Assembly: GCA_035495775.1 (NCBI GenBank) | Contig: DATJFG010000133.1 | Span: 10,178-74,177, forward strand | Source: Verrucomicrobiia bacterium | Lineage (GTDB): Bacteria > Desulfobacterota > Binatia > UBA9968 | Length of the DNA: 64,000 bases | Direction: 5' to 3' | In this document: piece by piece, positions 8,281 through 48,539 of the stretch | How positions within the stretch are numbered: position 1 is the first letter of the stretch | Layout: each line of letters begins with the position of its first letter | Made by a program: the position numbers and the translations under genes | The notes under the pieces: generated by a model | Database searches by the model: none | Seen by the model: only the letters and a program-made list of their open reading frames with translations | Told to the model about the DNA's origin: nothing

Positions 8281-8296
8281 AGCAATCCATATGCCA
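8281..8296 (-). promoter_or_regulatory. sigma54 (-24/-12) promoter, TGGCAT-atgga-TTGCT, for the reductase operon
   Basis: Plus strand reads AGCAATCCATATGCCA; reverse complement is TGGCATATGGATTGCT with exact GG/GC spacing; 53 nt upstream of start at 8228. Confidence 0.65.
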
Positions 8297-8520
8297 GCGA
8301 ATTTCTGCCAGTGATTCAGTTAATTGCAAGTATTTGTGTCGTTCGGTTTTCTCAAAATAAAGAAGAAACGAAGGGATATTCTCAATCGTGCGACTGCTGG
8401 ATTGCGACACATCACTCGTCGGTTTTCCGTCGCTTTAGCGCTGGGTTCTACCGATATGCCGGTTTTATTTGAAAATGGAGCGCCGACGGATTATAAATGC
8501 GCGAAAGGGGTTACTTATCC

Positions 8521-9018
8521 ATGGAGTCCGATTTCGAACCACTCGAGGCCTTTTCTGAGGTCGAACGGTTAGTCGGAAAGGTGTATTTCCGATTTTCCCA
8601 TCTTTTCATGGGCCGGCCGGATCTCAGAGATTTCTGGTGGGAAATGGCGCGCCAGGAAGAGCAGCACGGACTCATTCTACTTGCATGCAAACTCATCATT
8701 CAGAATTATGAAGATGAGGAGGTCGATCCGAGTCTCGGCCGCGAGAACGCACGGCGATTGAAAGAGCACGTGCAAAGTTATTTAAGCGAAGGAACGCCGG
8801 CGATCAGCGTCAACGAAGCGTTCAAAATCGCGCTTGACATCGAGACCTCCGAGATCGACGCGATTTACGGCAAGCTGTTACAGTTGGGAGGCCCCAAGGT
8901 CGCTCAGACACTAGAGAACCTAGGCGTGCCGGCGAGCGTGCAGCGACAAAAACTCAAAGGCGCGATTCGTCAGTTTTGCAACGATCCCAACCTAATCGCC
9001 GCGGCGGAGCAGCTATAA
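8521..9018 (+). CDS. hypothetical ferritin-like 4-helix protein (ExxH motifs), possible partner of the adjacent sigma54 activator
   Basis: EMARQEEQHG and LDIETSEIDAIYG motifs; paralog of 18782-19276 product (IILHDEERHHGLL / LILDSEKHERLLG). Start uncertain (8497 or 8521). Confidence 0.5.
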   Translation: MESDFEPLEAFSEVERLVGKVYFRFSHLFMGRPDLRDFWWEMARQEEQHGLILLACKLIIQNYEDEEVDPSLGRENARRLKEHVQSYLSEGTPAISVNEAFKIALDIETSEIDAIYGKLLQLGGPKVAQTLENLGVPASVQRQKLKGAIRQFCNDPNLIAAAEQL

Positions 9019-9023
9019 GACGA

Positions 9024-9974
9024 ATGGATTCCATGCAGAGCGGCTTCGAACATATCATCGGTAAGAGCAGAGTTCTGCTCAACTTGCTGGACATGGTGAC
9101 CAAGGTCGCGCCGACTGCGGCGACGGTCTTGATCTCCGGAGAAAGCGGCACCGGCAAGGAGCTTATCGCGCGCTCCATTCATTCGCTGAGCGACCGGCGC
9201 GACAAGCTCTTTTTACCGGTGAACTGCGGCGCATTGCCGGAGACATTGTTGGAGAGCCTTCTCTTCGGTCACATGAAGGGTTCTTTCACCGGCGCGTTCG
9301 CCAACCAAGAGGGGCTTTTTGAGAAAGCCCGCGGCGGCACGATTTTCTTAGATGAGATCGGCGAAATCCCGCAGCACCTCCAGGTGAAGCTGCTGCGCGC
9401 CCTCGAAGCGAAGGAGATCCTGCCGATCGGCAGCACGAGCCCGCGGCGCACCGATGTGCGAGTGGTCGCAGCGACGAACCGGGATTTGAAAAAGGAGACC
9501 GTCGAGGGACGGTTTCGCGACGATCTATACTACCGACTTAACATCATGGAGCTTCATATCCCGCCGCTGCGCGAACGGCCCGAGGATATTCCGCTTCTCA
9601 TCGAGCATCTGGTTCGCAGGCACAATCCCGAACTGAAAAAAAACTTCAGGGGCGCCGAGCCGGAGGTGATCCGCATGCTCGCCACTCTCGAATGGAAGGG
9701 CAATGTGCGCGAGCTCGACAATGTGATCGAGCACACGATGATCCTCGCCGATGGCGAATGGATCAAAATGGAACATGTGCCGGCGAGCCTCAAGAATCAG
9801 GAAACGGTCACCCCCTTTATTTTGAACCTCAAAGAAGCGACGAGACAATTCGAAAAACAGCACATCGTCCATGTCCTCGAGCAGGCGGGACAAGACCGCA
9901 AAGAGGCCGCGCGCTTGCTCGATATCAGTCTCTCTTCGCTGTATCGTAAGCTCGAAGAGCTGGGAATCGATTGA
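9024..9974 (+). CDS. sigma54-dependent transcriptional activator (bEBP) lacking N-terminal regulatory domain (PspF/HrpS-like architecture)
   Basis: Starts directly in AAA+ domain: Walker A GESGTGKE, GSFTGA (GAFTGA) motif, Walker B/R-finger, C-terminal Fis-type HTH; ~317 aa. Confidence 0.85.
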   Translation: MDSMQSGFEHIIGKSRVLLNLLDMVTKVAPTAATVLISGESGTGKELIARSIHSLSDRRDKLFLPVNCGALPETLLESLLFGHMKGSFTGAFANQEGLFEKARGGTIFLDEIGEIPQHLQVKLLRALEAKEILPIGSTSPRRTDVRVVAATNRDLKKETVEGRFRDDLYYRLNIMELHIPPLRERPEDIPLLIEHLVRRHNPELKKNFRGAEPEVIRMLATLEWKGNVRELDNVIEHTMILADGEWIKMEHVPASLKNQETVTPFILNLKEATRQFEKQHIVHVLEQAGQDRKEAARLLDISLSSLYRKLEELGID

Positions 9975-10073
9975 TTCCGGTTCTGAAGACATTTACCCGC
10001 GTCTTTTCCCGAAGTTGAGAAACGAGCTGCGATTTTCTTCAGCGTAAACAGCGTTCTTCGCGCGCTAAATCCC

Positions 10074-10089
10074 TGGCATCCTTATTGCT
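10074..10089 (+). promoter_or_regulatory. sigma54 promoter TGGCAT-cctta-TTGCT
   Basis: Exact -24 GG / -12 GC spacing; just upstream of the kinase-fusion gene. Confidence 0.6.
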
Positions 10090-10111
10090 CGGCGTATGCT
10101 GTGGAGCAGTC

Positions 10112-11749
10112 ATGGAACCCGAGTCGCTCATGTTGCCGTCGCCGCGTGCTGATCAGGAATCATTGGTGCAGGCGATGCTCGACCCGGCCTTTTACCCGCG
10201 TCGGCCATCGACGGTAAACTATCGCGAAACTCACATCTCGCACCTATTCTTCGCGGGAGACCTCGTCTACAAGGTCAAAAAAGACGTACGGTATTCGTTT
10301 GTCGATTACTCGAACTTAGAGCGGCGGCTGTTTTTCCTCCAGGAGGAACTCCGGCTCAATCGCCGTCTCGCGCCATCGGTGTATCTCGGCATCCTGCCGA
10401 TCTCTCACGACGACTACGGCTGGCAGCTGGGCAGTGATGCCCAACTAGCGGAATACGCCCTGGTTATGCGACGACTACCCGAACGGCGCATGCTCGATCA
10501 TCTCCTCGACACCGGCCAGGCGACGCCGTCGATGATGGACGCAGTGGCGGAAACACTCGCGCCGTTTCACGCAGCGGCGCCGAACGGCCGCAAGGTGCGG
10601 CCCTTCGGCGATCCAGCGAGGATCCGCTCGGTATGGACGGAGAACCTCTCCGATCTCGATCCTTTCATCGGACGCACCGTTGACGCCGGAACGCTCGCGG
10701 CGATTCGAGCATTCGGCGACAGTTTCCTGGCCGAGCATTCAGAACTGATGCAGCGCCGCGCGCTCGCCGGCTACACGCGCGAGGTTCACGGCGATCTTCA
10801 TTGCGAACATATCTGTTTCGCCCCCGAAGGCATCCAGATTTACGACTGCGTCGAGTTCAGCCGCCGCTTTAGATTCATCGACGTCGCGTCCGAGGTCGCC
10901 TTTCTCTCGATGGACCTCCAGGCGCGCGGGGCTCGCGAACACGCTCAGCGCTTTATCAATCGGTATGTCGAGCTGACGAACGACGCCGACCTGGCGAAGC
11001 TTCTGCCGTTTTATGAATGTTATCGGGCGCTCGTCAGGGCGAAGGTATTCACGCTCATCTTTCGCGACCGCGCCGAGGCGGCGTCGCGCTATTTCGATCA
11101 GGCGTACAGTTATACCTGGCAGGCGCTGAAGCCTTTCGTGGTGATGATCGCCGGCTTGACCGGCAGCGGGAAATCCACTCTAGCGCGCGCGCTCGCGCGA
11201 CGGCTCGGCGCGACTGTGATCAACTCCGATGTCACGCGTAAACGCCTTGCGGGCGCCTCCGATCGGCACGATCAGCTTAAGTACGGCGAAGGGCTCTATA
11301 GCCCGGCGATGACGGCGCGCGCCTATCGCAAGATGATGGAAGAAGCGGATAATTGTCTCGCCGCCGGCCGCAGCGTGATTCTCGACGCCACGTTTCATAA
11401 AGCGGCGCAGCGCGATCCGTCTTTGGAGATCGCCGAGCGCCGCGGTGCGTCCATAGCGCTCATCGAATGCCATGCGCGTGACGATCTCATCCGTGAGCGG
11501 CTCGCCGCCCGCGCCGAGGCCAGACGCGATCCTTCTGACGGAAATTGGCAAATTTACTTGAAACAAAAAGAGCTCTTCGAACCGTTTACGCTAAACCCTA
11601 ATCGCCTGCGGCTCGATACGGAGCTGTCGCTTGCGCAGCTCACGAACAAGTCCGAAGAGTTTCTCAGGGCCGCGCTGGCAAAGCCGGCGAATAAGACGGC
11701 CTATCCCATTCGAATTGCCGCCTCGAATCTGCTATCAGAAACCCGATGA
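10112..11749 (+). CDS. bifunctional phosphotransferase (APH/choline-kinase-like) + P-loop AAA_33-type kinase fusion
   Basis: N-terminal half has HGDLHCEHI catalytic loop and DxxE region of phosphotransferase family; C-terminal half has Walker A GLTGSGKST. ATG at 10112 (GGAG RBS) preferred over the TTG at 10085, which lies inside the promoter. Confidence 0.7.
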   Translation: MEPESLMLPSPRADQESLVQAMLDPAFYPRRPSTVNYRETHISHLFFAGDLVYKVKKDVRYSFVDYSNLERRLFFLQEELRLNRRLAPSVYLGILPISHDDYGWQLGSDAQLAEYALVMRRLPERRMLDHLLDTGQATPSMMDAVAETLAPFHAAAPNGRKVRPFGDPARIRSVWTENLSDLDPFIGRTVDAGTLAAIRAFGDSFLAEHSELMQRRALAGYTREVHGDLHCEHICFAPEGIQIYDCVEFSRRFRFIDVASEVAFLSMDLQARGAREHAQRFINRYVELTNDADLAKLLPFYECYRALVRAKVFTLIFRDRAEAASRYFDQAYSYTWQALKPFVVMIAGLTGSGKSTLARALARRLGATVINSDVTRKRLAGASDRHDQLKYGEGLYSPAMTARAYRKMMEEADNCLAAGRSVILDATFHKAAQRDPSLEIAERRGASIALIECHARDDLIRERLAARAEARRDPSDGNWQIYLKQKELFEPFTLNPNRLRLDTELSLAQLTNKSEEFLRAALAKPANKTAYPIRIAASNLLSETR

Positions 11750-12921
11750 GGGAAGTCGTTATCTTGAGCGCCGTGCGGACGCCGATCGGCGGCCTCAACG
11801 GATCGCTGTCTGCATTGCCGGCGCCGGCGCTCGGCAGCGTCGCGATCCGCGAGGCGCTCGCTCAGGCTCGGATCGGCGCCGAGCGCGTCGACGCCGTCAT
11901 CATGGGCAATGTCATCTCCGCGGGCGTCGGACAGGCACCGGCGCGCCAGGCGGCGCTCAAAGCCGGCCTTCCAAATACGGTCAGTTGCACGACGATCAAC
12001 AAGGTCTGCGGTTCGGGTCTCAATGCGGCGATGATCGCCGCGCAAGCGATCCGCACCGGAGACGCGGAAGTCATCGTGGCGGGCGGTATGGAGAGCATGA
12101 GCAACGCGCCCTATCTCCTCGACCGCGCACGCGCCGGCTATCGCATGGGCCACGCGACAGTTCTCGACAGTCTGATCAGAGACGGTCTGTGGGATGCCGT
12201 CGGCGATTTTCATATGGGCGTGGCGGCGGAGAAGTGCGCCGAGCGCTTCGGCATCTCGCGCGCCGATCAGGATGAATTCGCGGCGACAAGTTATCGCCGC
12301 GCGCACGCGGCGCAGATTAGCGGCGCGTTCAAGCACGAAATCGTTCCCGTGCTGACCGTTCAAAAGAACGGCTCCACGCCTGTAGCCGAAGATGAATCGG
12401 TGAAACGCTTCGATGCCGAGAAGATGCGCGCGCTAAAGCCGGCCTTTAAGTCCGACGGAACGGTTACGGCGGGGAACTCCTCTTCGATCAGCGACGGCGC
12501 CGCAGCCGTCGTCTTGATGACGCGCGAGAAGGCCGATGCGTTGGGCCTCAAACCCATCGCGCGGGTGATCGGCTCGGCGTCCGCGGCGCGCGCGCCTGAA
12601 TGGTTCACGATCGCGCCGGCCGACGTTATACCGAGGCTACTCGATCGCTGCGGCTACTCATTGAGCGACATTCACCTCTTCGAGATCAATGAGGCCTTTG
12701 CGGCCGCATCGATCGCCGTCAACCGCCTGCTCCATCTCGATCCGGAAAAGGTCAACGTGCGCGGCGGCGCCGTCGCCCTGGGCCATCCGATCGGCGCCAG
12801 CGGCGCGCGCATCTTGACGACGTTGACGCATGCGCTGGTCGACCTCGATAAAGAGCGCGGCGTGGCCGCGCTTTGCATCGGCGGGGGTGAAGCGGTGGCG
12901 ATGATGGTCGAGCGGCTTTAA
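11746..12921 (+). CDS. acetyl-CoA C-acyltransferase (thiolase II family)
   Basis: N-terminal VIVSAVRTPIGG-like block, active-site NKVCGSG, C-terminal GGGEAVAM; 391 aa; ATGA overlap with upstream gene. Confidence 0.9.
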   Translation: MREVVILSAVRTPIGGLNGSLSALPAPALGSVAIREALAQARIGAERVDAVIMGNVISAGVGQAPARQAALKAGLPNTVSCTTINKVCGSGLNAAMIAAQAIRTGDAEVIVAGGMESMSNAPYLLDRARAGYRMGHATVLDSLIRDGLWDAVGDFHMGVAAEKCAERFGISRADQDEFAATSYRRAHAAQISGAFKHEIVPVLTVQKNGSTPVAEDESVKRFDAEKMRALKPAFKSDGTVTAGNSSSISDGAAAVVLMTREKADALGLKPIARVIGSASAARAPEWFTIAPADVIPRLLDRCGYSLSDIHLFEINEAFAAASIAVNRLLHLDPEKVNVRGGAVALGHPIGASGARILTTLTHALVDLDKERGVAALCIGGGEAVAMMVERL

Positions 12922-12934
12922 TCCACTTTACGCT

Positions 12935-14386
12935 TCAGCGATCGATCTGATCCGCCGTGGCGCTATAGGTCTCGAATTTCGCGCGCACGTAAGGCGAGCT
13001 GTAGCCGTTTCGAATGCGCTCGATGCGCTCGGGCCGGCTGAAGAACTCCCGGTTGATCTCCGCCGACAGCGCTCCGAGCTCCTGCCGTGAGAGATGGCGC
13101 GTCGGCATGACGGTGTGAATCGCATCCCAATTTTTCAGATCGATGTTCTCGACGCGCTCACCCGTGAGCGCTTGGCGCCAGACCGGCGATCCGGGCATCG
13201 GCGTCAGGAGCATGAGAACGCCGATATCCGGGTCGATGTCGTCGACGGCGCGAAAACGCTGCCGAATCTTCGTCGCATCGTCCTCCCAGAAACCGCTCAT
13301 GTAGGTGCCGACTGTCGAGATGTCGTTTCGCCTGAGGAGTCGCACGAGCTCTCTTAAATCTCCGATCGTATAGCGATCTTTGCTTTTATGCAGGTTGACC
13401 AGCTCCTCGTCGCTGCCGACTTCGATGCCGAATAAGACCTGATAGCAGCCGGCGCGCCGCATGCGCGGAATCAAGTCGGCGTCGCGAAGCAGGTTGCGCG
13501 CTCGTCCCATGAAGAACCATTGCATATCGATGCGGCGCTTCTCGATCTCATCCAAGAGATCGACGATTTTTTGCCGGTCGGAGTTGAAATCGTCGTCCAT
13601 GAAGTTGAGCGCCTTCACGCCGTAGGTCTTGCTCAGCAACTCCATTTCATCGGCGACGAGCTTTCCGCTGCGCGTGCGGTGAACGAAAAAATCCTGCCGT
13701 CGGCGAAAATCTACCAGGCCCCACTCGTAGCAGAAGCTGCAGGCTCCTTCGCAGCCGCGGCTCGTCACCGCCTCGTTATATCCTGCGATCCGGGAAAAGC
13801 CGATGTATTTATCCATCGGGAAGAGATCATACGCCGGCATGGGCAACTCGTTCAGATCGATGATGAGCGGCCGCGGCGCGGTGAAGCGGATTTCGGATTG
13901 TTCCCGATAGGCGAGGCCGAGAACATCTTTGAGATTTGGTTGCGCCGATTTGAGCTGCTCCAAAAGCTCGGCGAGCGTCCGGTCGGCCTCTCCGATCACG
14001 ATGTAATCCAGCTGCGGAGCGAGACCGAGAATGTCTTTCGGCATGGACGAAAGCGCAAGGCCGCCGGAGATCGTGACGATACTGGGAAACGCTTGCTTGA
14101 CGGTCTCGAGGGCTTCCAAATAGCGCATCACCGAACCTGCGCCGCCTTCGGTCACGACCCGGGTGCCGACGAAGATCGCGTCGGGCGCGCTCTTTCTGAT
14201 GCTCTCGATCATCGCCTCTTCATCGAGGCCGAGAGCGCGGCAGTCGAGGACTTCGACCTGCGCAACCTTTTGCGTGCGAACGTACGCCGCCAAGTGTGCG
14301 TAGAGGGCATTACAGGCGACGTGGCGCGCGCCCCAGCGCTTCCAATTAGCCATCGGCGGCGTAAGGAAAAGTAGCTTCATATTCAC
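12935..14386 (-). CDS. B12-binding domain radical SAM protein (class B radical SAM)
   Basis: N-terminal cobalamin-binding Rossmann-like domain followed by CEGACSFC (CxxxCxxC) radical SAM cluster motif; 483 aa. Confidence 0.85.
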   Translation of the reverse strand: MNMKLLFLTPPMANWKRWGARHVACNALYAHLAAYVRTQKVAQVEVLDCRALGLDEEAMIESIRKSAPDAIFVGTRVVTEGGAGSVMRYLEALETVKQAFPSIVTISGGLALSSMPKDILGLAPQLDYIVIGEADRTLAELLEQLKSAQPNLKDVLGLAYREQSEIRFTAPRPLIIDLNELPMPAYDLFPMDKYIGFSRIAGYNEAVTSRGCEGACSFCYEWGLVDFRRRQDFFVHRTRSGKLVADEMELLSKTYGVKALNFMDDDFNSDRQKIVDLLDEIEKRRIDMQWFFMGRARNLLRDADLIPRMRRAGCYQVLFGIEVGSDEELVNLHKSKDRYTIGDLRELVRLLRRNDISTVGTYMSGFWEDDATKIRQRFRAVDDIDPDIGVLMLLTPMPGSPVWRQALTGERVENIDLKNWDAIHTVMPTRHLSRQELGALSAEINREFFSRPERIERIRNGYSSPYVRAKFETYSATADQIDR

Positions 14387-14427
14387 CCCGGGACTGTTTG
14401 GGACATGAAATGTTTAGGTGTCAACTA

Positions 14428-14443
14428 AGCAACTGCTATGCCA
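14428..14443 (-). promoter_or_regulatory. sigma54 promoter TGGCAT-agcag-TTGCT for B12-radical SAM gene
   Basis: Plus strand AGCAACTGCTATGCCA; reverse complement has exact consensus spacing; 42 nt upstream of start at 14386. Confidence 0.6.
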
Positions 14444-14590
14444 CCGTAAACAGCCGATACGGGGCATATTAAAGGGAAATTACGTAACAAATTTCTGTCG
14501 ATAAGAAACAGATAGGAAACTTTTCCCAAATTAAGGAAGTGGGTAAATCATCCGTCTAAGACTTAGCACGATGGCGGGGTAGCGCTCTTG

Positions 14591-14643
14591 AAGAAAACCA
14601 AGTGCGTCGTTGCGGCCGCTTTCGTGGCGACCGCAACGACGGC
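14591..14643 (-). terminator. Rho-independent terminator after the NMT1-like SBP gene
   Basis: GC-rich inverted repeat GCGTCGTTGCGGCCGC / GCGACCGCAACGACGGC; followed on the minus strand by TTGGTTTTCTTC. Confidence 0.55.
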
Positions 14644-14650
14644 TGAGTTC

Positions 14651-15670
14651 TTACAGGACGCCTTTTTTATATAGTCCGTCGATGAAGCCGCTCTGATCGA
14701 GTTTGCGGAGAATGCCTTCATCGACGAAATCATCGACGTTCAGCTTGCCGACGGACGGACTGATGTTTTTGACCTCATCGATAATCGCTTGGATGCCTTT
14801 ACGGTTCGGGTAGGGTCTCGCTTTGACCCACAGCGAGGTTACCTGCTCGTACGCCGCAGTGCCATCGCCCATCTTGGGGCCGAGATTTTTCACGAGCGTT
14901 TTCTTGACGGCTTCTTTGTTCGCCGGGTTGAGAATGAAGGCGTTCGCTTCCAGCAACCCTTTTAGAACCGCTTCGACCGATCGCGGACTTTCCTTCAAAT
15001 ACTTTCCGGTCGAAAGCAGCACGTCGTGCTCCCAAGGTATATTCAAGGCGCCGAGATCCGCCAAGATGGGAAACCCCTCTTTCTCGATCATGGGCTGGTA
15101 AAGGCGGTCGAAAACGGTCGCCTGGATGCCGTTCTGACCCAATGCGATCTGCCGCTCGACCTCGTTGCCGGCCGAGATAAGCGTGATGCGGTCTCTTTTC
15201 GGATCGAGGCCGAGATGCTTGAGCCCCAGGATCACACCGATATACGACGCCGATAAGCCGGTGCCGCTCACCCCGAAGATTTTTCCTTTGAGCCCTTCGG
15301 CGGATTTGATCTCTTTGCGCGTGACGACGAGGTAAGGCATCGTCGGCGCGACGGTGGCGAATTCGACGAGATCGGCGCCGCCGGCGCGCGCCGCCACCGC
15401 GGAGTGCGGCCCGGCCATTAAGATTGGAATCGAGCCGGTGAGGAGCGCCTGCGTGCCGATCGGATTGCCGCGAAACTGGATGATCTTCACGTCGACGCCG
15501 TATTTTTTGAAATAGCCGCGCTCGAGGCCGACCCAGAAGCCGACGGGAACGGCGTTTACGAAGGTCTGGCCGACGAGCAGCTCCGTCGCGCGTTGATCGG
15601 CGCGCGCCGGGGCGAGCCACACGAAAATGGCAAACAATGCAGCTGCTACGAGCGTTACTTTCCTGTTCAT
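14651..15670 (-). CDS. NMT1/THI5-like (SsuA/TauA-type) periplasmic substrate-binding protein
   Basis: Signal peptide; SBP type-2 fold signature blocks; 339 aa; no cognate permease or ATPase nearby. Confidence 0.7.
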   Translation of the reverse strand: MNRKVTLVAAALFAIFVWLAPARADQRATELLVGQTFVNAVPVGFWVGLERGYFKKYGVDVKIIQFRGNPIGTQALLTGSIPILMAGPHSAVAARAGGADLVEFATVAPTMPYLVVTRKEIKSAEGLKGKIFGVSGTGLSASYIGVILGLKHLGLDPKRDRITLISAGNEVERQIALGQNGIQATVFDRLYQPMIEKEGFPILADLGALNIPWEHDVLLSTGKYLKESPRSVEAVLKGLLEANAFILNPANKEAVKKTLVKNLGPKMGDGTAAYEQVTSLWVKARPYPNRKGIQAIIDEVKNISPSVGKLNVDDFVDEGILRKLDQSGFIDGLYKKGVL

Positions 15671-15696
15671 TCGATCCTCCTCCTGATGACTTATTG

Positions 15697-18729: not shown

Positions 18730-18781
18730 GATTTCTGCTCGTTTACTCGGCGGCTTGGTTCGGTGTCCCTGGAGCGGGGCT

Positions 18782-19276: not shown

Positions 19277-19292
19277 GAAACACCTCCGGAAA

Positions 19293-19559: not shown

Positions 19560-19765
19560 GAGCATCCTCCTGTGCTTTGCGCGATCTCCTTAAATGGGCG
19601 AGCAAAACAAAGGCCAAGACATTCGGCATCGCTTTGCTGCGGGGGCGATGCCTTTCGTCTGTGAGCATTCTCAAGACTGCAAAGAAGGAGAAATTTTTTA
19701 TTGGATTTGAGAACGAAAAGTTCGAAAAATACTGCCGCGATGCAGCCGTTGCGGGCGTTTTTTGA

Positions 19766-19781
19766 TGGCATATGCCTTGCT
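19766..19781 (+). promoter_or_regulatory. sigma54 promoter TGGCAT-atgcc-TTGCT
   Basis: Exact consensus spacing; 54 nt upstream of the LTxxQ protein gene. Confidence 0.6.
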
Positions 19782-19834
19782 GAATTTACTTTGTGTATTC
19801 TGCGATTGAACTCGATAAGCGAAGGGGAAAGGTT

Positions 19835-21364: not shown

Positions 21365-21380
21365 TGGCATGAAAGGTGCT
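21365..21380 (+). promoter_or_regulatory. possible sigma54 promoter variant TGGCAT-gaaag-GTGCT upstream of split PFOR
   Basis: GG and GC dinucleotides at correct spacing, but -12 is GTGC not TTGC; overlaps the first ATG of the track ORF. Confidence 0.35.
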
Positions 21381-31543: not shown

Positions 31544-31588
31544 CGTCCGATCCTCTCGGTTAGTGGGAGTTTTCTATTTTTTGCTTCA

Positions 31589-31603
31589 GCACAAAGCATG
31601 CCA
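31589..31603 (-). promoter_or_regulatory. possible sigma54 promoter variant TGGCAT-gcttt-GTGCT upstream of usp
   Basis: Plus strand GCACAAAGCATGCCA; GG/GC spacing correct, -12 is GTGC. Confidence 0.3.
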
Positions 31604-31769
31604 CCCATAACGAGTAAATCTCCAGGAAAAAGCCTGTCTCTACATGGCTTTTTCCACTTTTTAAGAGAATGGCGCTTAAAATTCGCATTGAAGCGAAAAA
31701 TTCCCTCGCCCTCTTCAGTAAGTTGTGCTATTTTTCCACGGCATAAAGCTTGCTGTGTGGTTTCGGCGC

Positions 31770-37389: not shown

Positions 37390-37417
37390 GCGGCAGCAGG
37401 GGAACAACACGGCCTTG

Positions 37418-39849: not shown

Positions 39850-39875
39850 GAGATTCCAACGCCTCAGGAGATAAC

Positions 39876-40331
39876 ATGTCCGACGGAACACTCGATCCGC
39901 GAATCGACCGGAGAAACTTCTTAAACTGGTTTCTAGGTACGACGGCAGGCGCTTTTCTCGTCGCGGTTCTGTACCCGCTGAGCCGCTACCTTATCCCTCC
40001 AAAGGTCGAGGAGTCGACCGCCAAGAATGTTACACTTTCGATCAAACCCGGCGACGTCAAAGTCAACAGCGGCGAGATTTTCCGCTTCGGCAACCAGCCG
40101 GCGATTTTGGTTCGGACCCCCGCCAACGAGCTCAAAGCGTTCTCGGCGGTCTGCACGCATCTGTCCTGTATCGTTCAATACCGATCGGACCTGAGCCATA
40201 TCTGGTGCGCGTGCCACAACGGCCACTATGATCTCAACGGTAAAAATATCATCGGCCCGCCGCCCAAGCCGCTCGAAGCATACACCGTCAACGTCAAGGG
40301 CGACCAGATCGTTGTGAGCAAGACGGCGTGA
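39876..40331 (+). CDS. Rieske [2Fe-2S] iron-sulfur subunit of a cytochrome bc-type complex
   Basis: Tat motif RRNFLNW, TM helix, CTHLSC...CACHNGHY Rieske boxes; ATG at 39876 with AGGAGA RBS preferred over GTG at 39846. Confidence 0.85.
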
Positions 40332-40336
40332 CGCTT

Positions 40337-41434: not shown

Positions 41435-41463
41435 CTTGTACGTATCGTTGAACGCAGGACAAG

Positions 41464-42570
41464 ATGAAAACGGCCGAGTCCATTTCAATCATCGTCGTCT
41501 TCTTCGGTGCGGTTTTTCTCATCTCCTCGATTTCTTTCGCTCAGACTATCGCGTTTCCGAAAGATTGTGTCAGTTGCCACGGTTCCGAAGCGAAATATCC
41601 GGTACGCGGCGTGCGCAGCCAGTATCTGACTTCCGGCCATCGAACCATCGGCAACGCCTCGTACGCCAACGCCGACGATTGTCAGGGTTGTCATACGAAC
41701 GAAGGATTTATCGACAGGGCGAAGACCGGGAAGGTCGATACCAAGAAATACGTACGCTATCCATCGGAAATCGGCTGCTTCACCTGCCACGCTCCGCACG
41801 ACAGAGGCGACTTCTCGTTGCGTAAGACGACGGCTGTCACGCTCGCCAACGGCACCACCTACGACCGAGGCAAAAGCAATTTATGCGCGAGTTGCCATCA
41901 AGCCCGGCGCACAGCCAAAGAAGAAGTGAAGGCGCGAGTCATCCCGAGCGACAGCTGGGGCGCTCACCATGGGCCGCAAGCGGATATGCTTCTCGGCACG
42001 AATGCGTATGAGTACTCGGGAAAGAAATATTCCAAATCACCACACGCGGTTTTATCCAACGCCGACTGTATCACCTGCCACATGGCCCTCCCGAACGGAC
42101 GCTATTCGCTCGCCCCTTCGATCGGCGGGCACAGCTTTAATGTCGCAGGCGAGGTGCACGAACGGCCGACGGTCAACGCGGCGGGATGCCTGTCGTCAGG
42201 CTGCCATACGGAGATGAAACAGATCGAAGGAAAACCCTTCTTCGATCGCAAGGCAGCGGCGGATTACGATGGCAACGGCAAAATCGAAAGCATCCAAGAA
42301 GAAGTGCAAGGGCTCCTTAACAAGCTCATCAACGAGCAAGGCACCGGCCTTTTGCAGACGATGAAAAATCCTCCCTACGACGCAAAAGGAAAATTTATCG
42401 AGAATAAGGTTTCGTATCCCGTCGAGGTCACGGCGGCTCTTTACAATTACAAATTCGTCAAAGAAGACGGCAGCCGAGGGATCCACAATACTACATACGC
42501 CGTCGAGCTCTTGATCGATTCCATCCACGCGTTGAACAAAGATTTCGACGATTCCAAACGGCCGCAATAA
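41464..42570 (+). CDS. hexaheme c-type cytochrome subunit of the bc complex
   Basis: Signal peptide; CVSCH, CQGCH, CFTCH, CASCH, CITCH plus non-canonical CLSSGCH (CX4CH). Confidence 0.75.
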   Translation: MKTAESISIIVVFFGAVFLISSISFAQTIAFPKDCVSCHGSEAKYPVRGVRSQYLTSGHRTIGNASYANADDCQGCHTNEGFIDRAKTGKVDTKKYVRYPSEIGCFTCHAPHDRGDFSLRKTTAVTLANGTTYDRGKSNLCASCHQARRTAKEEVKARVIPSDSWGAHHGPQADMLLGTNAYEYSGKKYSKSPHAVLSNADCITCHMALPNGRYSLAPSIGGHSFNVAGEVHERPTVNAAGCLSSGCHTEMKQIEGKPFFDRKAAADYDGNGKIESIQEEVQGLLNKLINEQGTGLLQTMKNPPYDAKGKFIENKVSYPVEVTAALYNYKFVKEDGSRGIHNTTYAVELLIDSIHALNKDFDDSKRPQ

Positions 42571-42600
42571 AAGGCCGGCCGAGAAGTCGGCGGATCGTCA

Positions 42601-44565
42601 ATGAGGGTTTGTGTGAGTAGGCATTGGTTTGCTGTGATCCTCGCAGTTTGTTTCTTCGCGTCGCTTTTTTCGCTGTCAGTCGTGCATGCAGCGGAACCTT
42701 TAGCGAAGGAAGTCTGTCTTTCGTGCCATGGCGCGCCGGGATTGGAAAAAACGCGCGACGGCAAGACCGTCTCCTTGCAGGTCGACGGGGACGCTTTTGA
42801 GCACTCCGTGCACGCTCCTTTCGGGTGCGTGACGTGTCACAGCGACATCAGCGCCATCCCGCATTCACCGCAATTAAAGCCGGTGGATTGTAGCGCCTGC
42901 CACGCCGAAGCCATCAAAGTTTTCTCGCAGAGCGTTCACGGTAAGGCGCGGGCCAACGGAGCAGCCGAAGCGCCGACGTGCAAGAGCTGTCACGGCGACC
43001 TCCACCGCGTCAAACGAAGTTCCGAGCCGGACGCGCGAACTTATCGCACGAACATTCCGAACGTGTGCGCGTCGTGCCACGCCGATGAGAAGATTGCGCA
43101 GAAATTCCGCATCCCGATCGTCCGTCCGGTCGAGGCGTATCTAAAAAGCGTGCATGCGCGTGCCGTTGCCGCCGGCAGAAACGGCGCCGTCTGCACCGAC
43201 TGCCACGGCTCGCACGGCATTGAGCCCGGATGGGACCCGACTTCTTCCGTATGGCGGATCAGCATTCCGGCGACCTGCGGCAAATGCCATGAGCAGATCC
43301 AGACGGCATACCGCGAGAGCGTTCACGGGGTGGCGCTCGCTCGCGGAGTGCGCGAAGCTCCGGCTTGCACCGACTGTCACGGAGAACATCGCATTCTGGC
43401 GCCGAGCGAACCGCAGTCGCCCGTATTCGCCGCCAACATTCCCGGTGAAACCTGCGGCCGCTGCCACGGCGACGCGCGCCTGAGCGAGAAATACGGGATT
43501 CCCATCGACAAGGTTCGAGCCTATCAGGACAGCTATCACGGACTCGCCTTGCGCGGCGGCAAGGTCACCGTTGCCAATTGTTCGAGCTGTCACGGCGTGC
43601 ACGATATCAGAGCGTCTTCGGATCCGCGCTCGCATGTTAACGCGAAAAACCTGCCGCAGACTTGCGGCAAGTGCCACCCGGGGGCCGGTCTCGTTTTGGC
43701 GCTCACACGCGTGCACGTCCTGCCGACCGAGTCGGACCCGGTGCTTTATTGGATTCGCTTCATTTATCTCTGGATCATCGGCCTCGTCATCGGGGGCATG
43801 CTGATTCACAACTTGATCGACCTTGTGAAAAAAGCGCGCAGCGAAATTCCGCATCATGCCGAGATCGTCCCGACGTCCGAACGGATGCCGCGCCAGCTCC
43901 GCTGGCAGCACGGTCTCGTCATGGTGAGTTTTCCTTTGCTGGTCTATACCGGCTTCGCTCTCACGTATCCGGAAACCTGGTGGGCCACGCCGCTGGTCCG
44001 CTGGGAGGCTCAAGTGGGAATCCGCGGCCTTCTGCACCGCATTGTCGCGTGCATCCTTGTCGCGTCTCTTTTGTGGCACGGGATATCTATTGCCCGCAGT
44101 CCAAGACTGCGCGAATGCCTGCTGCGCTCAATCATGTTCCGGTTCCAGGATATACGGGATATGATCCGGCTCCAGCGTTACAATCTCGGATTTGATTCCG
44201 AACGGCCGCGGTTCGGTAAGTTCAGTTACATCGAAAAAGCCGAGTACTGGGCATTCATGTGGGGCATGATATTGATGACCGTCACCGGAGTGCTTCTGTG
44301 GTTCAACAATACGACCCTGCGCTACCTGTCGAATTGGATCACCGACATCGCGACTGCTCTTCACTTCTACGAAGCCGTTCTGGCGACCCTCGCAATCCTG
44401 GTCTGGCACTTCTATTGGACGATGTTCGATCCTGAGGTTTATCCGATGGACGCAAGCTGGTGGCACGGCCGCGCGCCGGCCGCCCGCGAGGCGGAACGCC
44501 ATGAGCCGATATCGCCTCCGGTTGAGGGGAAAGAAACGCCGAATCCGCCACTCGATAGAAAATAA
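42601..44565 (+). CDS. CbcL-like fusion: periplasmic multiheme (11 CxxCH) cytochrome c domain + C-terminal diheme cytochrome b (HydC/FdnI-type) membrane domain
   Basis: 11 CxxCH in the N-terminal 370 aa. This is followed by 4-5 TM helices with conserved His (HNLIDL, WWHG...) typical of Ni/Fe-hydrogenase or Fdh gamma b-type cytochromes. Confidence 0.75.
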   Translation: MRVCVSRHWFAVILAVCFFASLFSLSVVHAAEPLAKEVCLSCHGAPGLEKTRDGKTVSLQVDGDAFEHSVHAPFGCVTCHSDISAIPHSPQLKPVDCSACHAEAIKVFSQSVHGKARANGAAEAPTCKSCHGDLHRVKRSSEPDARTYRTNIPNVCASCHADEKIAQKFRIPIVRPVEAYLKSVHARAVAAGRNGAVCTDCHGSHGIEPGWDPTSSVWRISIPATCGKCHEQIQTAYRESVHGVALARGVREAPACTDCHGEHRILAPSEPQSPVFAANIPGETCGRCHGDARLSEKYGIPIDKVRAYQDSYHGLALRGGKVTVANCSSCHGVHDIRASSDPRSHVNAKNLPQTCGKCHPGAGLVLALTRVHVLPTESDPVLYWIRFIYLWIIGLVIGGMLIHNLIDLVKKARSEIPHHAEIVPTSERMPRQLRWQHGLVMVSFPLLVYTGFALTYPETWWATPLVRWEAQVGIRGLLHRIVACILVASLLWHGISIARSPRLRECLLRSIMFRFQDIRDMIRLQRYNLGFDSERPRFGKFSYIEKAEYWAFMWGMILMTVTGVLLWFNNTTLRYLSNWITDIATALHFYEAVLATLAILVWHFYWTMFDPEVYPMDASWWHGRAPAAREAERHEPISPPVEGKETPNPPLDRK

Positions 44566-44603
44566 GCGGACGAGGGATCGACAAAAAGGAAGGATAAGTC
44601 TTA

Positions 44604-46412
44604 GTGAATCAATATCTAAGAAGACTGATTAGCCATCCGGTGAGCCTCGCCGGCGCGATCCTCGTCATTTTCAGCTTTCTGTCGATCGTCTCGATGCTGA
44701 TGATCGAGGCGGTCATAGGAAGACCGAATCCCTACGCCGGGCTCTTCGTTTACATGGTTTATCCCGGCCTGCTGATCTTGGGACTCGTTCTCATGCCGGT
44801 CGGCTTCTTCCTCGAACGCAAGCGCCGGGTGGTCGTCGGCGAAGCGCCGCCGTTCCCGCGTATCGATCTGAACGACGCGCGAACCCGCGCCACCTTCGTC
44901 ATTCTGGCAGGAGCGGCGTTTGTCGTCGTGGTTCTCATCTCGACGATCAGCTATCAGGCGTACCATTTTACCGAGTCGGTCTCCTTCTGCGGCGAGCTCT
45001 GTCATTCGGTCATGAATCCCGAATACACGGCGTACCAAGCCTCGCCGCACTCGCGCGTCGCCTGCGCGGATTGCCATGTCGGCCCAGGGGCGACCTGGTG
45101 GGTACGCTCGAAGCTCGCCGGCATGTACCAGATCTATTCGGTCGTGTTCAAACAATATCCGAAGCCGATCGCGACGCCGGTGCACAGCCTGCGTCCCGCG
45201 CGCGAAACCTGCGAGCAATGTCACTGGCCGGAGAAATTCTTCGGCGCTCAGATGAAGGTCATCAATCGCTTCGGCTACGACGACCGCAACACTGCGCGCC
45301 AGATTCAAATGCTCATCCGCACCGGCGGCGGCAGTCCGACGACCGGTATTACCGCCGGCATTCACTGGCACATGAACATAGCGAACGTGGTGTACTATGG
45401 CGCCGCCGACGCGCACCGGCAAAAGATTCCTTGGGTTTGGATCAAAGATCCTCAGGGCAGGGTGACGGAATATTTCGACACCAGCGCATCGCTCAAGCCT
45501 GATGAATGGAAACAGCTCGAGATCCGACGCATGGACTGCGTCGACTGCCACAATCGTCCCTCGCACATCTTCCGCGATCCGGACGCGGCGGTCGACAATG
45601 CGCTTTTCGTCGGGCTCATCGACCGGGGGCTGCCGTTTATCAAGCGCGAGGCCGTCAGGGTCTTGAGCCAGAGCTATCCCAGCCGTGAAAAGGCCCTCGA
45701 GGGAATCGCCACCATGCTCGATGCGTACTATGTCAAAGAGTTTCCGAAATTATATAAGGAGAAAAACGAGGCCGTTAAAAAAGCGATCAGCGAGACGCAA
45801 AAGATCTACGAGGTCAACTTCTTCCCCGAAATGAAAGTCGACTGGCGCACGCACCCCGACAATATCGGCCATACGCTCTATCCGGGTTGCATGCGGTGCC
45901 ACGACGGCAAGCACGTGAGCCGCGAAGGCAAGGTGATCCGCAATGAGTGCCAGCTCTGTCATACGATCATCGGTCAGGAAACTCAGGTGCGCAATCCGAC
46001 CGAAGTCCAGGCGGCGGAAAAGTTCAAGCATCCGTGGCCGCTCATGGGCAAGCACGCGCAGCTCACCTGCAACAGCTGCCATTTGCGCGGGCGCGGCTTA
46101 ACGCCCGAGTGCTCGACCTGTCATGTCCGTCCCGCCGATGCGCCAATGGCGTCGTTCCCGTGCGGACAATGTCATTTAAAGGAGCAAAGCGTTCAGCCGA
46201 CGCAGAACTGCGCGACATGCCATCCATCGCGAGCCGGACTCCATGTGAAGGCAACCCATTCGGCGGCTCCGTGCGTGACCTGTCACATCCCGCACGAATG
46301 GAAAGTGGCGAAGCGAGAGCCCTGTCTCGCCTGCCATACCGATAAAGCGGAGCATAATGCTCCTGTGGCATGCCGTGACTGTCACAGCTTCCGGCCGGCC
46401 GCCAAGACATGA
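44604..46412 (+). CDS. inner-membrane multiheme cytochrome c (13 CxxCH), NapC/NirT/ImcH-like N-terminus
   Basis: Three N-terminal TM helices, then CGELCH...CADCH and 11 more CxxCH; GTG start with AAGGAAGGA RBS. Confidence 0.75.
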   Translation: MNQYLRRLISHPVSLAGAILVIFSFLSIVSMLMIEAVIGRPNPYAGLFVYMVYPGLLILGLVLMPVGFFLERKRRVVVGEAPPFPRIDLNDARTRATFVILAGAAFVVVVLISTISYQAYHFTESVSFCGELCHSVMNPEYTAYQASPHSRVACADCHVGPGATWWVRSKLAGMYQIYSVVFKQYPKPIATPVHSLRPARETCEQCHWPEKFFGAQMKVINRFGYDDRNTARQIQMLIRTGGGSPTTGITAGIHWHMNIANVVYYGAADAHRQKIPWVWIKDPQGRVTEYFDTSASLKPDEWKQLEIRRMDCVDCHNRPSHIFRDPDAAVDNALFVGLIDRGLPFIKREAVRVLSQSYPSREKALEGIATMLDAYYVKEFPKLYKEKNEAVKKAISETQKIYEVNFFPEMKVDWRTHPDNIGHTLYPGCMRCHDGKHVSREGKVIRNECQLCHTIIGQETQVRNPTEVQAAEKFKHPWPLMGKHAQLTCNSCHLRGRGLTPECSTCHVRPADAPMASFPCGQCHLKEQSVQPTQNCATCHPSRAGLHVKATHSAAPCVTCHIPHEWKVAKREPCLACHTDKAEHNAPVACRDCHSFRPAAKT

Positions 46413-46443
46413 AAGGGGGGCGAAAAAATGTAAAATTGAAGTG

Positions 46444-46481
46444 TTGACACCGGTTGTGCGTCTAATTATTGGGTTTATAAA
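46444..46481 (+). promoter_or_regulatory. possible sigma70-type promoter (TTGACA / TTGTGC ... TATAAA) upstream of monoheme cytochrome gene
   Basis: TTGACA at 46444 and TATAAA at 46476; spacing ambiguous. Confidence 0.25.
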
Positions 46482-46494
46482 CGGAGGTGAAACC

Positions 46495-46845
46495 ATGCAT
46501 ATTTTTAGTGCGAAAGCGGCGGCGGCCACTTTGGCCCTGGCATTTGCGGTTTCTTTGACGTGGGTTTCGACGGCGGGCGCCGGCGAAGCCAAAGCTGGGA
46601 AAGCCCAGTACGATAAGCTCTGTACTTCATGTCACGGCGCCGACGGCAAGGGAAACCCGGCGATGGCGAAGTCGATGGGAGAAAAGGGGTTGAACCTTAC
46701 GACCAAAGAAGTCAAAGACGCCAAAGACGAAGAACTCATAAAAGTCATTACCGAAGGCAAGGGCAAAATGCCGGCATCGGGCAAGAGCCTGAGCAAGTCG
46801 GAGCAGAAGGAAGTTGTCGAGTACGTACGGTCGTTGGGAAAGTAA
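46495..46845 (+). CDS. monoheme class I cytochrome c (paralog of 37066-37389)
   Basis: Signal peptide, CTSCHG, KVITEGKGKMPA block shared with the 37066 gene; RBS GGAGGTG. Confidence 0.8.
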   Translation: MHIFSAKAAAATLALAFAVSLTWVSTAGAGEAKAGKAQYDKLCTSCHGADGKGNPAMAKSMGEKGLNLTTKEVKDAKDEELIKVITEGKGKMPASGKSLSKSEQKEVVEYVRSLGK

Positions 46846-46882
46846 AAACGGCAGTTCGTCCGTATTCGTGCGTGATTTCCGG

Positions 46883-46918
46883 GGCAAGCACCGCTGCAGT
46901 TTGATTGCGGTGCCTGCC
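46883..46918 (+). terminator. stem-loop after cytochrome operon (11/12-bp GC-rich stem, 12-nt loop), no clear U-tract
   Basis: GGCAAGCACCGC tgcagtttgatt GCGGTGCCTGCC. Confidence 0.3.
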
Positions 46919-47049
46919 CCAATCCCACTCAGCCGAATCCTCAGCTCAAAAACGCGTCTCTAGATTCCGATCAAGTTGTTGACAACCCCCGCGCCTTAGC
47001 TTTAGGCTCACTTTCGTTCGTGATCGTTTTCCTTGCGGCTGAGACAACA

Positions 47050-48393
47050 ATGTCGCGCAAAATTCTCATTGTCGACGACGAGCCCTTCAATTTGGACGTT
47101 CTCGAGCAGGAGCTCGGCGACCGCGGTTATTCGATCGAAAGGGCGGCCGATGGCGCCGCCGCGCTCGCTCAAACGGAATCGCTTCGTCCCGACCTCATTC
47201 TTCTCGATTATCAGATGCCAGACATGAACGGCATCGAAGTCATGAAAGAGCTTAGGAGTCGCGGCAACGAAGCGCCGGTAATCATGCTCACCGCGTATGG
47301 AACGATCGAGCGGGCGGTTCTGGCGATGAAGGGAGGCGCCTACGATTTCGTCACCAAGCCGTTTGATCCCGATCATTTGCTCCTCGTCGTCGAAAAGGCC
47401 CTGGAGCGGGAGACACTGAGGACGGAGATCGGAATTCTTTCCGACGAAGTCGGCGAGCGGCACCACCTCGTCGTCGGTAAGAGCAAGAAAATGACGGAGA
47501 TCGCGGACGCTGCGAAACAGGCCGCGTCAAGCAAAGCCACGATCCTGCTCCTCGGCGAGAGCGGCACCGGAAAGGAGATCTTCGCGCGGGCCATCCATCA
47601 TTGGAGCGAGCGAAAAGATAAATCTTTCGTGGCGATTAATTGTGTCGGCCTCTCCAAGGAACTGCTGGAAAGCGAGCTGTTCGGTCACGAGAAGGGGGCT
47701 TTTACGGGCGCGCATCAGCTGAAGAAGGGAAAAATGGAGCTGGCCGACGGCGGCACCGTTTTTCTCGACGAGGTCGGCGACATTACCCCCGAGCTTCAGA
47801 CCAAACTCCTCCGCTTTCTTCAGGAGCGGGAGTTCGAGCGTGTCGGAGGCGGCCGCTCGATATCCGTCGACGTGCGGATCATCGCGGCCACCAACCGGAA
47901 CCTCGAAGAGGATGTGAGGCAGGGCCGCTTCCGCGAAGATCTCTATCATCGTCTCAACGTCGTGCCGCTCGTCTTGCCGCCGCTCCGTGAACGAAAGGAA
48001 GACATTCCGGAGCTCGCCAACTATTTTCTTCACCGCTTTGCCAGAGAGACCAAGAAAAAGTTCGACGCCGTCACTGACGAAGCGTTGGCGTGTCTCTGCG
48101 CGTATTCGTGGTCGGGCAATGTCCGCGAACTTGCGAACGTGATCGAGCGGGGCGTCGTCCTCGGTCGGGGCTCTCGGTTAGATGTTGCCGATCTCCCCGC
48201 GCGGATCACTGGCGCCTTGTCGCCCCCGCCGCAATCCAGCGCCTCTTACCATGAAGCGATCGACGCCGCGCGGCGCGAGCTGGTCCAAAGGGCGCTCGTC
48301 CGAGCCCAAGGCAACCGCACCGAGGCGGCGAAGCTACTTGGTATGCATAAGACCCACCTATTCCGATTAATAAAAGCGCTCGGCATCGAGTGA
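47050..48393 (+). CDS. NtrC-family sigma54-dependent response regulator (REC + AAA+ + HTH)
   Basis: REC domain with DD...D...K residues, GESGTGKE Walker A, GAFTGA motif, C-terminal Fis-like HTH; 447 aa. Confidence 0.9.
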   Translation: MSRKILIVDDEPFNLDVLEQELGDRGYSIERAADGAAALAQTESLRPDLILLDYQMPDMNGIEVMKELRSRGNEAPVIMLTAYGTIERAVLAMKGGAYDFVTKPFDPDHLLLVVEKALERETLRTEIGILSDEVGERHHLVVGKSKKMTEIADAAKQAASSKATILLLGESGTGKEIFARAIHHWSERKDKSFVAINCVGLSKELLESELFGHEKGAFTGAHQLKKGKMELADGGTVFLDEVGDITPELQTKLLRFLQEREFERVGGGRSISVDVRIIAATNRNLEEDVRQGRFREDLYHRLNVVPLVLPPLRERKEDIPELANYFLHRFARETKKKFDAVTDEALACLCAYSWSGNVRELANVIERGVVLGRGSRLDVADLPARITGALSPPPQSSASYHEAIDAARRELVQRALVRAQGNRTEAAKLLGMHKTHLFRLIKALGIE

Positions 48394-48523
48394 AGCATTT
48401 CCGCTACGCCCAGTAGCTAAGCCGCTACCACGGCACGAGCACTGGCCTCGGCCGGCATCGACACCCTTCAAGAATCCGCCGTTATTTTCATGACTTGACT
48501 TAGGTCAACCGCTCGCGTCATTG

Positions 48524-48539
48524 TGGCACGGCCATTGCG
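48524..48539 (+). promoter_or_regulatory. sigma54 promoter TGGCAC-ggcca-TTGCG
   Basis: Perfect -24/-12 consensus; 100 nt upstream of the SBP/sensor-kinase cluster; palindrome TTGACTTAGGTCAA 18 nt upstream. Confidence 0.6.

Follow-up and report, generated by a model that had tools for sequence, protein, structure and literature searches.

The 64,000-nucleotide (nt) stretch of contig DATJFG010000133.1 analyzed here (hereafter the window) belongs to an uncultured bacterium of the Candidatus Binatia and, judged from its letters and those of related loci, probably carries nine genuine sigma-54 (RpoN) promoters that belong to at least two independent activator circuits. In the first circuit, enhancer-binding protein 1 (EBP1) would bind TTGAGAA-type sites and activate the promoters called A, B, D and D'. 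In the second, a dCache/GAF kinase would phosphorylate the response regulator EBP2, which would bind GCTAC/GTAGC repeats and activate promoter E; the kinase gene lies inside the operon behind E, so that the circuit would feed back positively on itself. To promoters C, F, G and H no activator is assigned; theirs may be encoded elsewhere. The -24/-12 element is read by sigma-54 itself, so that similarity between cores means sigma-54 and not a common regulator, and the specificity of the wiring is predicted to be set by the upstream enhancers, not by the -24/-12 core.

The nine sites are very probably genuine sigma-54 promoters. The degenerate pattern TGGCAYNNNNNTTGCK (TGGCAY-N5-TTGCK) has five exact matches in the window (A, B, C, D and E in Table 1), against 0.16 expected from dinucleotide-preserving shuffles, and none of the 100 shuffles made for this pattern reached five. 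Four of the matches share the form TGGCAT-N5-TTGCT, for which the shuffles give 0.01, and the fifth, at promoter E, reads TGGCAC/TTGCG. A first-pass annotation of this DNA had reported these same five sites, accurately in coordinates, strand and sequence; its estimate of fewer than 0.3 chance matches agrees with the shuffles, and the gene starts that it placed 20–100 nt downstream, in the correct orientation, lie 22–102 nt beyond the 16-mer. The bare skeleton TGG-N8-TTGC is not enriched in the window (10 matches against 7.5 expected), and therefore the signal resides in the full element. Although about 92% of the window is coding, all five exact sites are intergenic and each faces the next gene. 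With the GG and GC dinucleotides fixed and at most one mismatch allowed, the number of sites rises to nine through the addition of D', F, G and H; all nine lie at gene 5' ends in the correct orientation, 15–102 nt from the start codon, a placement shared by only about 5% of window positions. Matches with two mismatches under the same constraint all fall inside genes (9/9), so neither the coding-region density nor the random orientation that the first-pass annotation had named as speaking against promoters is seen. When GG and GC are left free, 11 one-mismatch matches are found against 4.3 expected, and the two extra ones (40987 and 59319) are intragenic, with GC or GG broken. The weaker variants noticed earlier before the PFOR, usp and cupredoxin genes are present, and those of PFOR and cupredoxin are also conserved in relatives; the ninth site, promoter D', had been missed.

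All nine sites satisfy the sigma-54 spacing, with the -24 GG and the -12 GC exactly 10 nt apart in a TGGCAC-N5-TTGCW-like context; the published consensus is TGGCAC-N5-7-TTGCT (PMC12316311). A sigma-70 consensus scan of positions 8000–21500 returned one weak intragenic match against 4 expected, so that no sigma-70 promoter would compete with the sigma-54 sites. The window encodes just two activators with a GAFTGA-type loop, EBP1 and EBP2. The sigma-54 type proposed in the first pass stands, the sites being far above chance, well placed and conserved, and the loops of both activators intact; the presence of rpoN in the genome is only implied by these two proteins.

Conservation was followed on a gene map built from open reading frames (ORFs) and Pfam, and in 177 related loci fetched for comparison (L-numbers). 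Contigs of JGI metagenomes from soil and sediment carry homologues of the window proteins, and the closest named relatives are Candidatus Binatia metagenome-assembled genomes (MAGs). The left third of the window (0–23 kb) is a syntenic island, found in the same order in L003–L006 at 80–91% protein identity: an operon resembling benzoyl-CoA reductase (BCR) genes, a 165-residue protein (p165) with EBP1, the kinase-thiolase operon, a B12-binding radical SAM (rSAM) gene, the UbiD-like/RidA/NMT1 genes, a Met-rich peptide with an rSAM/SPASM gene, and the PFOR-like genes. The operons of this block are thus not, as first described, otherwise unrelated. Within it, the 16-mer of promoter A is identical in L003 and L006 and reads TGGCACATCGATTGCT in L014, before the orthologous gene. 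Promoter B is kept before the orthologous kinase gene in L003, L006, L014, L016, L018 and L023, down to about 52% protein identity. Promoter D is kept in L003 and L014 and also before the rSAM orthologue in L010, and D' in L003 (17505-) and L014 (15639-). At promoter F, a 19-nt block containing the 16-mer is identical in L003 amid flanks only ~60–70% identical. Farther right, the L016 orthologue of promoter H carries a perfect TGGCATAACCATTGCT at the equivalent place, and promoter E is invariant as TGGCACGGC-NN-TTGCG in L174–L177. Purifying selection is therefore apparent at A, B, D, D', E, F and H and not at C; for G the support is weak and indirect, coming from comparable sites ahead of usp homologues in L024 and L008.

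The four promoters attributed to the first circuit share an upstream heptamer. Five of the window's 11 TTGAGAA heptamers stand upstream of A, B and D/D', and no other 7-mer is common to these three regions. At these promoters the heptamer always has the promoter's orientation, and the distance from its start to the T of TGG is 59 nt at A, B and D and 58 nt at D'. The arrangement TTGAGAA-N45-60-TGGC has 5 matches against 0.53 expected, four with N51-52 and a fifth, intragenic, with N47. The distal heptamer of promoter A is kept in L003 and L006 amid diverging flanks. Promoter B has a possible inverted partner, TTCTGAA, at 9981–9987, and TTAAGAA stands at the B-equivalent position in L003, L006, L014 and L018. 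L003 keeps the arrangement of the inverted pair between D and D', and L014 has a degenerate form of it; overall, TT[GA]AGAA is kept at the corresponding promoters in L003, L006, L014 and L018. Independent support comes from L012, whose EBP1 orthologue (79% identity) has quite other neighbors, PaaA/C-like and multicopper oxidase genes, and adjoins two divergent sigma-54-like promoters with TTCTTAA-N2-TTGAGAA between them. Promoters C, G, H and E have no TTGAGAA motif, and promoter F has only TTTCTCA (TGAGAA-like), kept in L003, ~88 nt upstream. A search for inverted repeats upstream of C, F and E found nothing for C or F, and missed the palindrome of E, whose arms are 5 nt long and which came out of the alignment of several loci. 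On balance we favor EBP1, whose gene lies amid the operons of this circuit, as the protein that would bind TTGAGAA.

Two further features of these promoter regions were observed. Among 15 back-to-back sigma-54 pairs, 7 are spaced by 146–151 bp from TGG to TGG, in different Binatia loci and next to different genes (window 19616/19766; L003 17505/17654; L008 9085/9236 and 15810/15959; L012 7356/7505; L014 8622/8772 and 15639/15785); among the other spacings, two in L010/L015 are 319–320 bp and two more are 198–200 bp. Directly upstream of the -24 element, A, B and their orthologues carry a GAAAT(T)CC-like block (window 8297–8306 and 10065–10073; L003/L006/L014), with variants gaaattcgc, taaatccc, gaaatttcct, gaaattcc and gaaaatcct, while D-type promoters have a T-run instead; the block may extend the -24 context or represent an additional site. 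GC-rich, hairpin-forming inverted repeats also lie between the TTGAGAA halves and D'/D (19625–19652 and 19735–19754), with a pairing not obviously kept in L003.

EBP1 (PF00158, 4.5e-67) has a Walker A GESGTGKE, a GSFTGA loop, AAA_lid_14 and HTH_8, and its AAA+ domain starts at about residue 11 of 316, or residue 27 of a 332-residue ORF whose start lies 16 codons upstream. Since it has no sensor of its own, p165 may control it in trans, possibly with a related protein (p164), as PspA controls PspF. The predicted fold of p165 is a ferritin-like four-helix bundle, and E15, H27, E46-x2-H49 and E108-x2-E111 are invariant; such a partner could be metal- or oxygen-responsive. EBP1 orthologues with 70% identity or more all have a p165 homologue as their immediate upstream neighbor, and paralogues of 59% identity or less have none; a p164-like gene precedes p165 in 8 of 11 GTDB representatives and, again, in none of the paralogues at or below 59%. 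Weighing these features together, we put forward only tentatively that p165 would be a trans-acting regulator of EBP1, either a sensor or an anti-activator. The idea that p165 and EBP1 form one frameshifted gene was rejected, the two being separate genes in every relative.

Several observations were made on the p165/EBP1 operon and on p164. Both p165 and p164 (18782–19276) are small Pfam-less helical proteins with an EE(Q/R)H-x-GL motif in common (BLASTP E 0.018). Most Binatia have a three-gene module of p164-like gene, p165 and EBP with its own sigma-54 promoter (e.g., L012 8189–9201; L014 8990–9880); p164 has been relocated in the window to the UbiD operon behind promoter D'. The p165/EBP1 operon has no sigma-54 promoter in the window clade (window, L003 and L006), and the sigma-70-like element before it (Table 1) had escaped the consensus scanner because its last base is A, not T.

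The second circuit centers on EBP2 (PF00158, 1.8e-71), which has GAFTGA, AAA_lid_14 and HTH_8. For promoter E, footprinting used L174–L177, fetched through EBP2 homologues with 75–93% protein identity. The GCTAC/GTAGC palindrome is kept in all four orthologous loci, and the next 60 nt diverge; EBP2 is followed by ABC_sub_bind solute-binding protein (SBP) genes in L174–L177, to which L177 adds a gene for a dCache/GAF histidine kinase. EBP2 is thus a likely activator of promoter E, the assignment that we hold with the most confidence of the three made for the two activators and p165. An attempt to use the first SBP as metagenome bait for the same footprint was dropped, the matches being tandem ABC_sub_bind paralogues without an upstream activator; its homologues (L094–L173) mostly form tandem arrays of 3–4 paralogous genes in soil metagenomes, and only copies adjoining EBP2 orthologues carry the sigma-54 promoter. 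A separate observation is CTTGAC (48494–48499), kept in all five orthologous E regions ~30 nt upstream of the -24 element; in the window (48494–48508) it belongs to the palindrome TTGAC-TTAG-GTCAA. It could be a second regulator site, an overlapping -35 box of sigma-70 type or the site of a bending protein.

Several results weigh against this picture as a whole. The offset of TTGAGAA drifts in more distant orthologues (56, 46, 67 and 38 nt), and the kinase promoters of L016 and L023 lack the motif. Only proximity and conservation speak for pairing EBP1 with TTGAGAA, and the same holds for EBP2 and the palindrome. Conservation fails at promoter C: the B12-rSAM gene of L003 comes straight after the NMT1 gene and has no promoter in between. 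No Pfam family or PDB chain is related to p165 at the sequence level, its Foldseek matches are weak and its second metal-type motif is ExxE, not ExxH; moreover, L008 and L009 have a p165 homologue with no adjacent activator. Finally, a search with an RpoN-box peptide in the window and the 177 fetched loci (1.7 Mb) found none.

Some of these points bear on the alternative that survives best, in which the promoters are real sigma-54 promoters, TTGAGAA is bound by another activator, encoded elsewhere in the genome, or by an architectural or repressor protein, and EBP1 acts on other sites. Such a reading would accommodate the drifting offset, as well as the fact that TAAGAA-like words are common upstream of sigma-54 promoters in the AT-rich intergenic DNA of Binatia. 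It fits poorly with the motif being clustered near the EBP1 gene both in the context of window/L003/L006 and in the different one of L012, and with a position of ~-82 relative to the predicted start, which is typical of a proximal enhancer; the heptamer is also unlike the IHF consensus, WATCAANNNNTTR. We regard this alternative as unlikely, and keep EBP1 as the candidate binder.

Less probable still is a single regulon in which both window activators would co-control all sites, as suggested by the near-identical -24/-12 elements. All sites do share the TGGCA(Y)-N5-TTGC core, both activators are encoded in the window, and the conserved TTTCTCA upstream of the PFOR promoter means that the first circuit could exceed four promoters. 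Nevertheless, the core is what sigma-54 reads, not the activators, and on other Binatia contigs it stands before many unrelated genes, 1.4 Mb of fetched loci holding 57 exact and 78 one-mismatch sites. The upstream sequences differ as well, with TTGAGAA for A, B, D and D', the palindrome for E and neither for C, G and H, and the TGGCAC/TTGCG variant of the fifth site is invariant in its orthologues. The earlier proposal that near-identical cores wire these operons together is thus not supported, and separate, enhancer-defined circuits are preferred. That the matches are not promoters at all, but products of chance or parts of a dispersed repeat, is hardly credible given the excess of exact sites over expectation (5 against 0.16), the 5'-end placement of all nine and the cross-species islands of identity; the repeat was rejected since aligned promoter regions share only the TTGAGAA and -24/-12 blocks and no other flanking sequence.

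Table 1. Predicted regulatory features and regulators in the window
Feature	Position	Strand	Description
Promoter A	8281..8296	-	TGGCATATGGATTGCT; would drive the BCR-like reductase operon 8228->901
Promoter B	10074..10089	+	TGGCATCCTTATTGCT; would drive the APH/AAA_33 kinase (ATG 10112) and thiolase operon
Promoter C	14428..14443	-	TGGCATAGCAGTTGCT; would drive the B12-binding radical SAM gene (ATG 14353)
Promoter D'	19601..19616	-	TGGCCTTTGTTTTGCT; divergent from the 19766 site; would drive 19565->14651
Promoter D	19766..19781	+	TGGCATATGCCTTGCT; would drive the Met-rich secreted peptide (ATG 19835) and TIGR04053 radical SAM/SPASM gene
Promoter F	21365..21380	+	TGGCATGAAAGGTGCT; before PFOR-like 2-oxoacid:ferredoxin oxidoreductase
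Promoter G	31588..31603	-	TGGCATGCTTTGTGCT; the universal stress protein gene (usp, ATG 31543) begins 44 nt downstream
Promoter H	31739..31754	+	CGGCATAAAGCTTGCT; before the CarboxypepD_reg/cupredoxin operon
Promoter E	48524..48539	+	TGGCACGGCCATTGCG; would drive operon 48642->55631
Candidate enhancer of A	8349-8355 and 8379-8385	-	two direct TTGAGAA, 59 and 89 nt upstream of TGG
Candidate enhancer of B	10015..10021	+	TTGAGAA, 59 nt upstream of TGG
Shared candidate enhancer of D/D'	19668..19713	.	TTCTCAA-N32-TTGAGAA; each half 58-59 nt from the facing promoter
Candidate enhancer of E	48403..48428	+	GCTAC-N5-GTAGC-N6-GCTAC; directly past the EBP2 stop, centered ~114 nt upstream of TGG
Sigma-70-like element	8469..8497	+	TTGAAA-N17-TATAAA; before the p165/EBP1 operon; conserved in L003 and L006
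p165	8521..9018	+	165 aa, directly upstream of EBP1; ferritin-like four-helix fold
EBP1	9024..9974	+	AAA+ (GSFTGA loop) and Fis-type helix-turn-helix (HTH); no N-terminal sensor domain
EBP2	47050..48393	+	NtrC-type response regulator: receiver, AAA+ with GAFTGA, HTH
Terminator-like hairpin	14605..14641	-	15 pairs; ends the UbiD/NMT1 operon just upstream of promoter C, separating both

The operons behind the first-circuit promoters encode oxygen-sensitive anaerobic enzymes: BCR-like and beta-oxidation-type proteins, a kinase and thiolase, a UbiD-like (de)carboxylase and an rSAM/SPASM protein. The operon of promoter A comprises two HGD-D, two BcrAD, SDR, amidohydrolase_2, enoyl-CoA hydratase and PaaA/C-like genes. 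Its best NCBIfam equivalog matches are BcrC, BcrB, BcrA and BcrD, all below the curated cut-offs (344 against 421 bits, 318 against 487, 204 against 578 and 186 against 313, respectively), and on these scores the enzyme is not assignable as a class I benzoyl-CoA reductase; it is BCR-like only. The D' operon holds a 90-aa ORF, p164, a RidA-like gene, a UbiD-like gene and two NMT1 binding-protein genes. Its first gene, the 90-aa ORF (19293–19565, minus strand), is putative; it has a hydrophobic helix at its N terminus and a tail rich in Cys, and is missing from L003, where D' directly precedes the p164 orthologue. Promoter E precedes genes for two ABC_sub_bind proteins, a dCache-HAMP-GAF histidine kinase, a receiver, an NMT1 protein and a receiver-cyclase.

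Two start codons were corrected. Translation of the PFOR alpha subunit is placed at ATG 21402 instead of the longest-ORF ATG 21369, because in the L003 alignment indels of 2 and 5 nt follow the promoter and protein similarity begins at residue 12; promoter F is then 21 nt upstream, and the objection that the 21365 site overlaps ATG 21369 and would be disqualified as a PFOR promoter was rejected on the same alignment. The CarboxypepD_reg gene starts at ATG 31770, which opens a signal peptide, the extension to the longest-ORF GTG 31725 being false and spanning the 31739 site. With these starts, the predicted leaders are ~11 nt (PFOR) and ~5 nt (CarboxypepD_reg). Between the divergent usp and cupredoxin-operon promoters lies a perfect inverted repeat, GGAAAAAGCC-N11-GGCTTTTTCC (31625–31655), a candidate enhancer for a third activator.

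Two neighboring gene sets were also noted. Positions 26287–30985 encode a Fer4_5 membrane protein, a molybdopterin oxidoreductase (876 aa) and a NapB-like dihaem cytochrome, a periplasmic nitrate-reductase-like set. The large cluster at 33251–46845 holds genes for a decahaem-type cytochrome, several multihaem cytochromes, mono-haem cytochromes c, a Rieske/cytochrome b pair and an MtrB/PioB-type outer-membrane porin. With such genes, this member of the Binatia may oxidize iron or transfer electrons out of the cell; the cluster contains no sigma-54 site with at most one mismatch and intact GG/GC.

Binatia are abundant uncultured soil and sediment bacteria without a genetic system. The analysis provides a regulatory map of a conserved anaerobic catabolic island of this lineage, with nine promoters, two enhancer motifs and a likely activator for five of the promoters, two corrected start codons and a conserved pair of a sensor-less EBP and a ferritin-like partner that is open to testing in a heterologous host. 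The map also includes a predicted transcription start for each promoter, near 8270(-), 10100(+), 14417(-), 19590(-), 19792(+), 21391(+), 31577(-), 31765(+) and 48550(+). One could go further and see in EBP1 and p165, perhaps with p164, an undescribed sigma-54 module in which a free-standing, ferritin-like and probably metal-binding sensor of O2, redox state or iron gates EBP1. Oxygen-labile enzymes (BCR-like, radical SAM, UbiD-like and possibly PFOR) would then be made only under anoxia, and the whole, including the TTGAGAA-type enhancer and the ~149-bp geometry, would be a lineage-wide Binatia device. This larger proposal is speculative, and we consider it rather doubtful that all of it will hold.

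How the window compares with characterized systems depends on the component. In E. coli, hyc/hyp (FhlA) and zraP/zraSR (ZraR) have back-to-back sigma-54 promoters that share one enhancer. D' and D similarly diverge from a central inverted enhancer pair; unlike in those two systems, 7 of the 15 divergent Binatia pairs have a near-constant TGG-to-TGG spacing. NtrBC, ZraSR and AtoSC are NtrC-family two-component activators with enhancers ~100–140 bp upstream. EBP2 resembles this family in its receiver, AAA+ and Fis-type HTH domains, in an inverted-repeat enhancer ~114 nt upstream of the -24 element and in having a kinase gene in the regulated locus; the JGI label "AtoC" for EBP2 is a family name only. 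It differs from NtrBC, ZraSR and AtoSC in that the dCache-HAMP-GAF kinase is encoded behind two SBP genes inside the target operon, and in its new signal and enhancer sequence.

EBP1 is best compared with PspF, whose gene has a sigma-70-type promoter divergent from the sigma-54 target promoter pspA. The EBP1 operon of the window clade likewise has a sigma-70-type promoter that diverges from a sigma-54 target promoter, and EBP1, like PspF, consists of AAA+ and HTH only, with a small helical protein encoded next to it. Both PspF/PspA and HrpR/S-HrpV are cases of sensor-less activators controlled in trans by a separate protein (PMC4987338). Unlike PspA, p165 has no PspA/IM30 coiled coil and is instead a ferritin-like four-helix bundle with conserved Glu and His residues; it is also encoded upstream of EBP1 in the same predicted operon and is not an EBP1 target, as PspA is of PspF. 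By analogy, p165 and EBP1 may function like the PspA-PspF pair without being members of that family. In Aromatoleum aromaticum EbN1, EtpR provides XylR/DmpR-like sigma-54 control of a peripheral anaerobic aromatic module (PMC4630880); in regulators of this type an N-terminal domain binds the aromatic effector, and EBP1 lacks such a domain.

No paper mentioning both Binatota and sigma-54 was found in the literature searched, and a paper on the aromatic island of Geobacter metallireducens makes no mention of sigma-54. As far as that literature goes, the use of this control in the Binatia lineage, the two enhancer sequences, the strict pairing of EBP1 with p165 and the back-to-back geometry are undescribed. 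The promoters themselves are textbook, and any novelty would be in the partner protein and the fixed promoter-enhancer geometry. The closest parallel is the ~25-kb resorcinol (1,3-dihydroxybenzene) cluster of Aromatoleum anaerobium, in which three sigma-54 promoters (PrehL1, PbqdL and Porf14) have shared enhancers and are served by the activators RedR1 and RedR2 (PMC10084136). As there, the window has an anaerobic, aromatic-type island with several transcription units, shared upstream sequences and two in-cluster activators. Enhancers of the Red promoters stand at roughly -120 to -136, against a predicted ~-82 for TTGAGAA and a palindrome ~114 nt upstream of TGG at promoter E. Finally, RedR1 and RedR2 are near-identical paralogues with N-terminal sensor domains that act on the same promoters, whereas EBP1 and EBP2 differ both in their architecture and in their enhancers.

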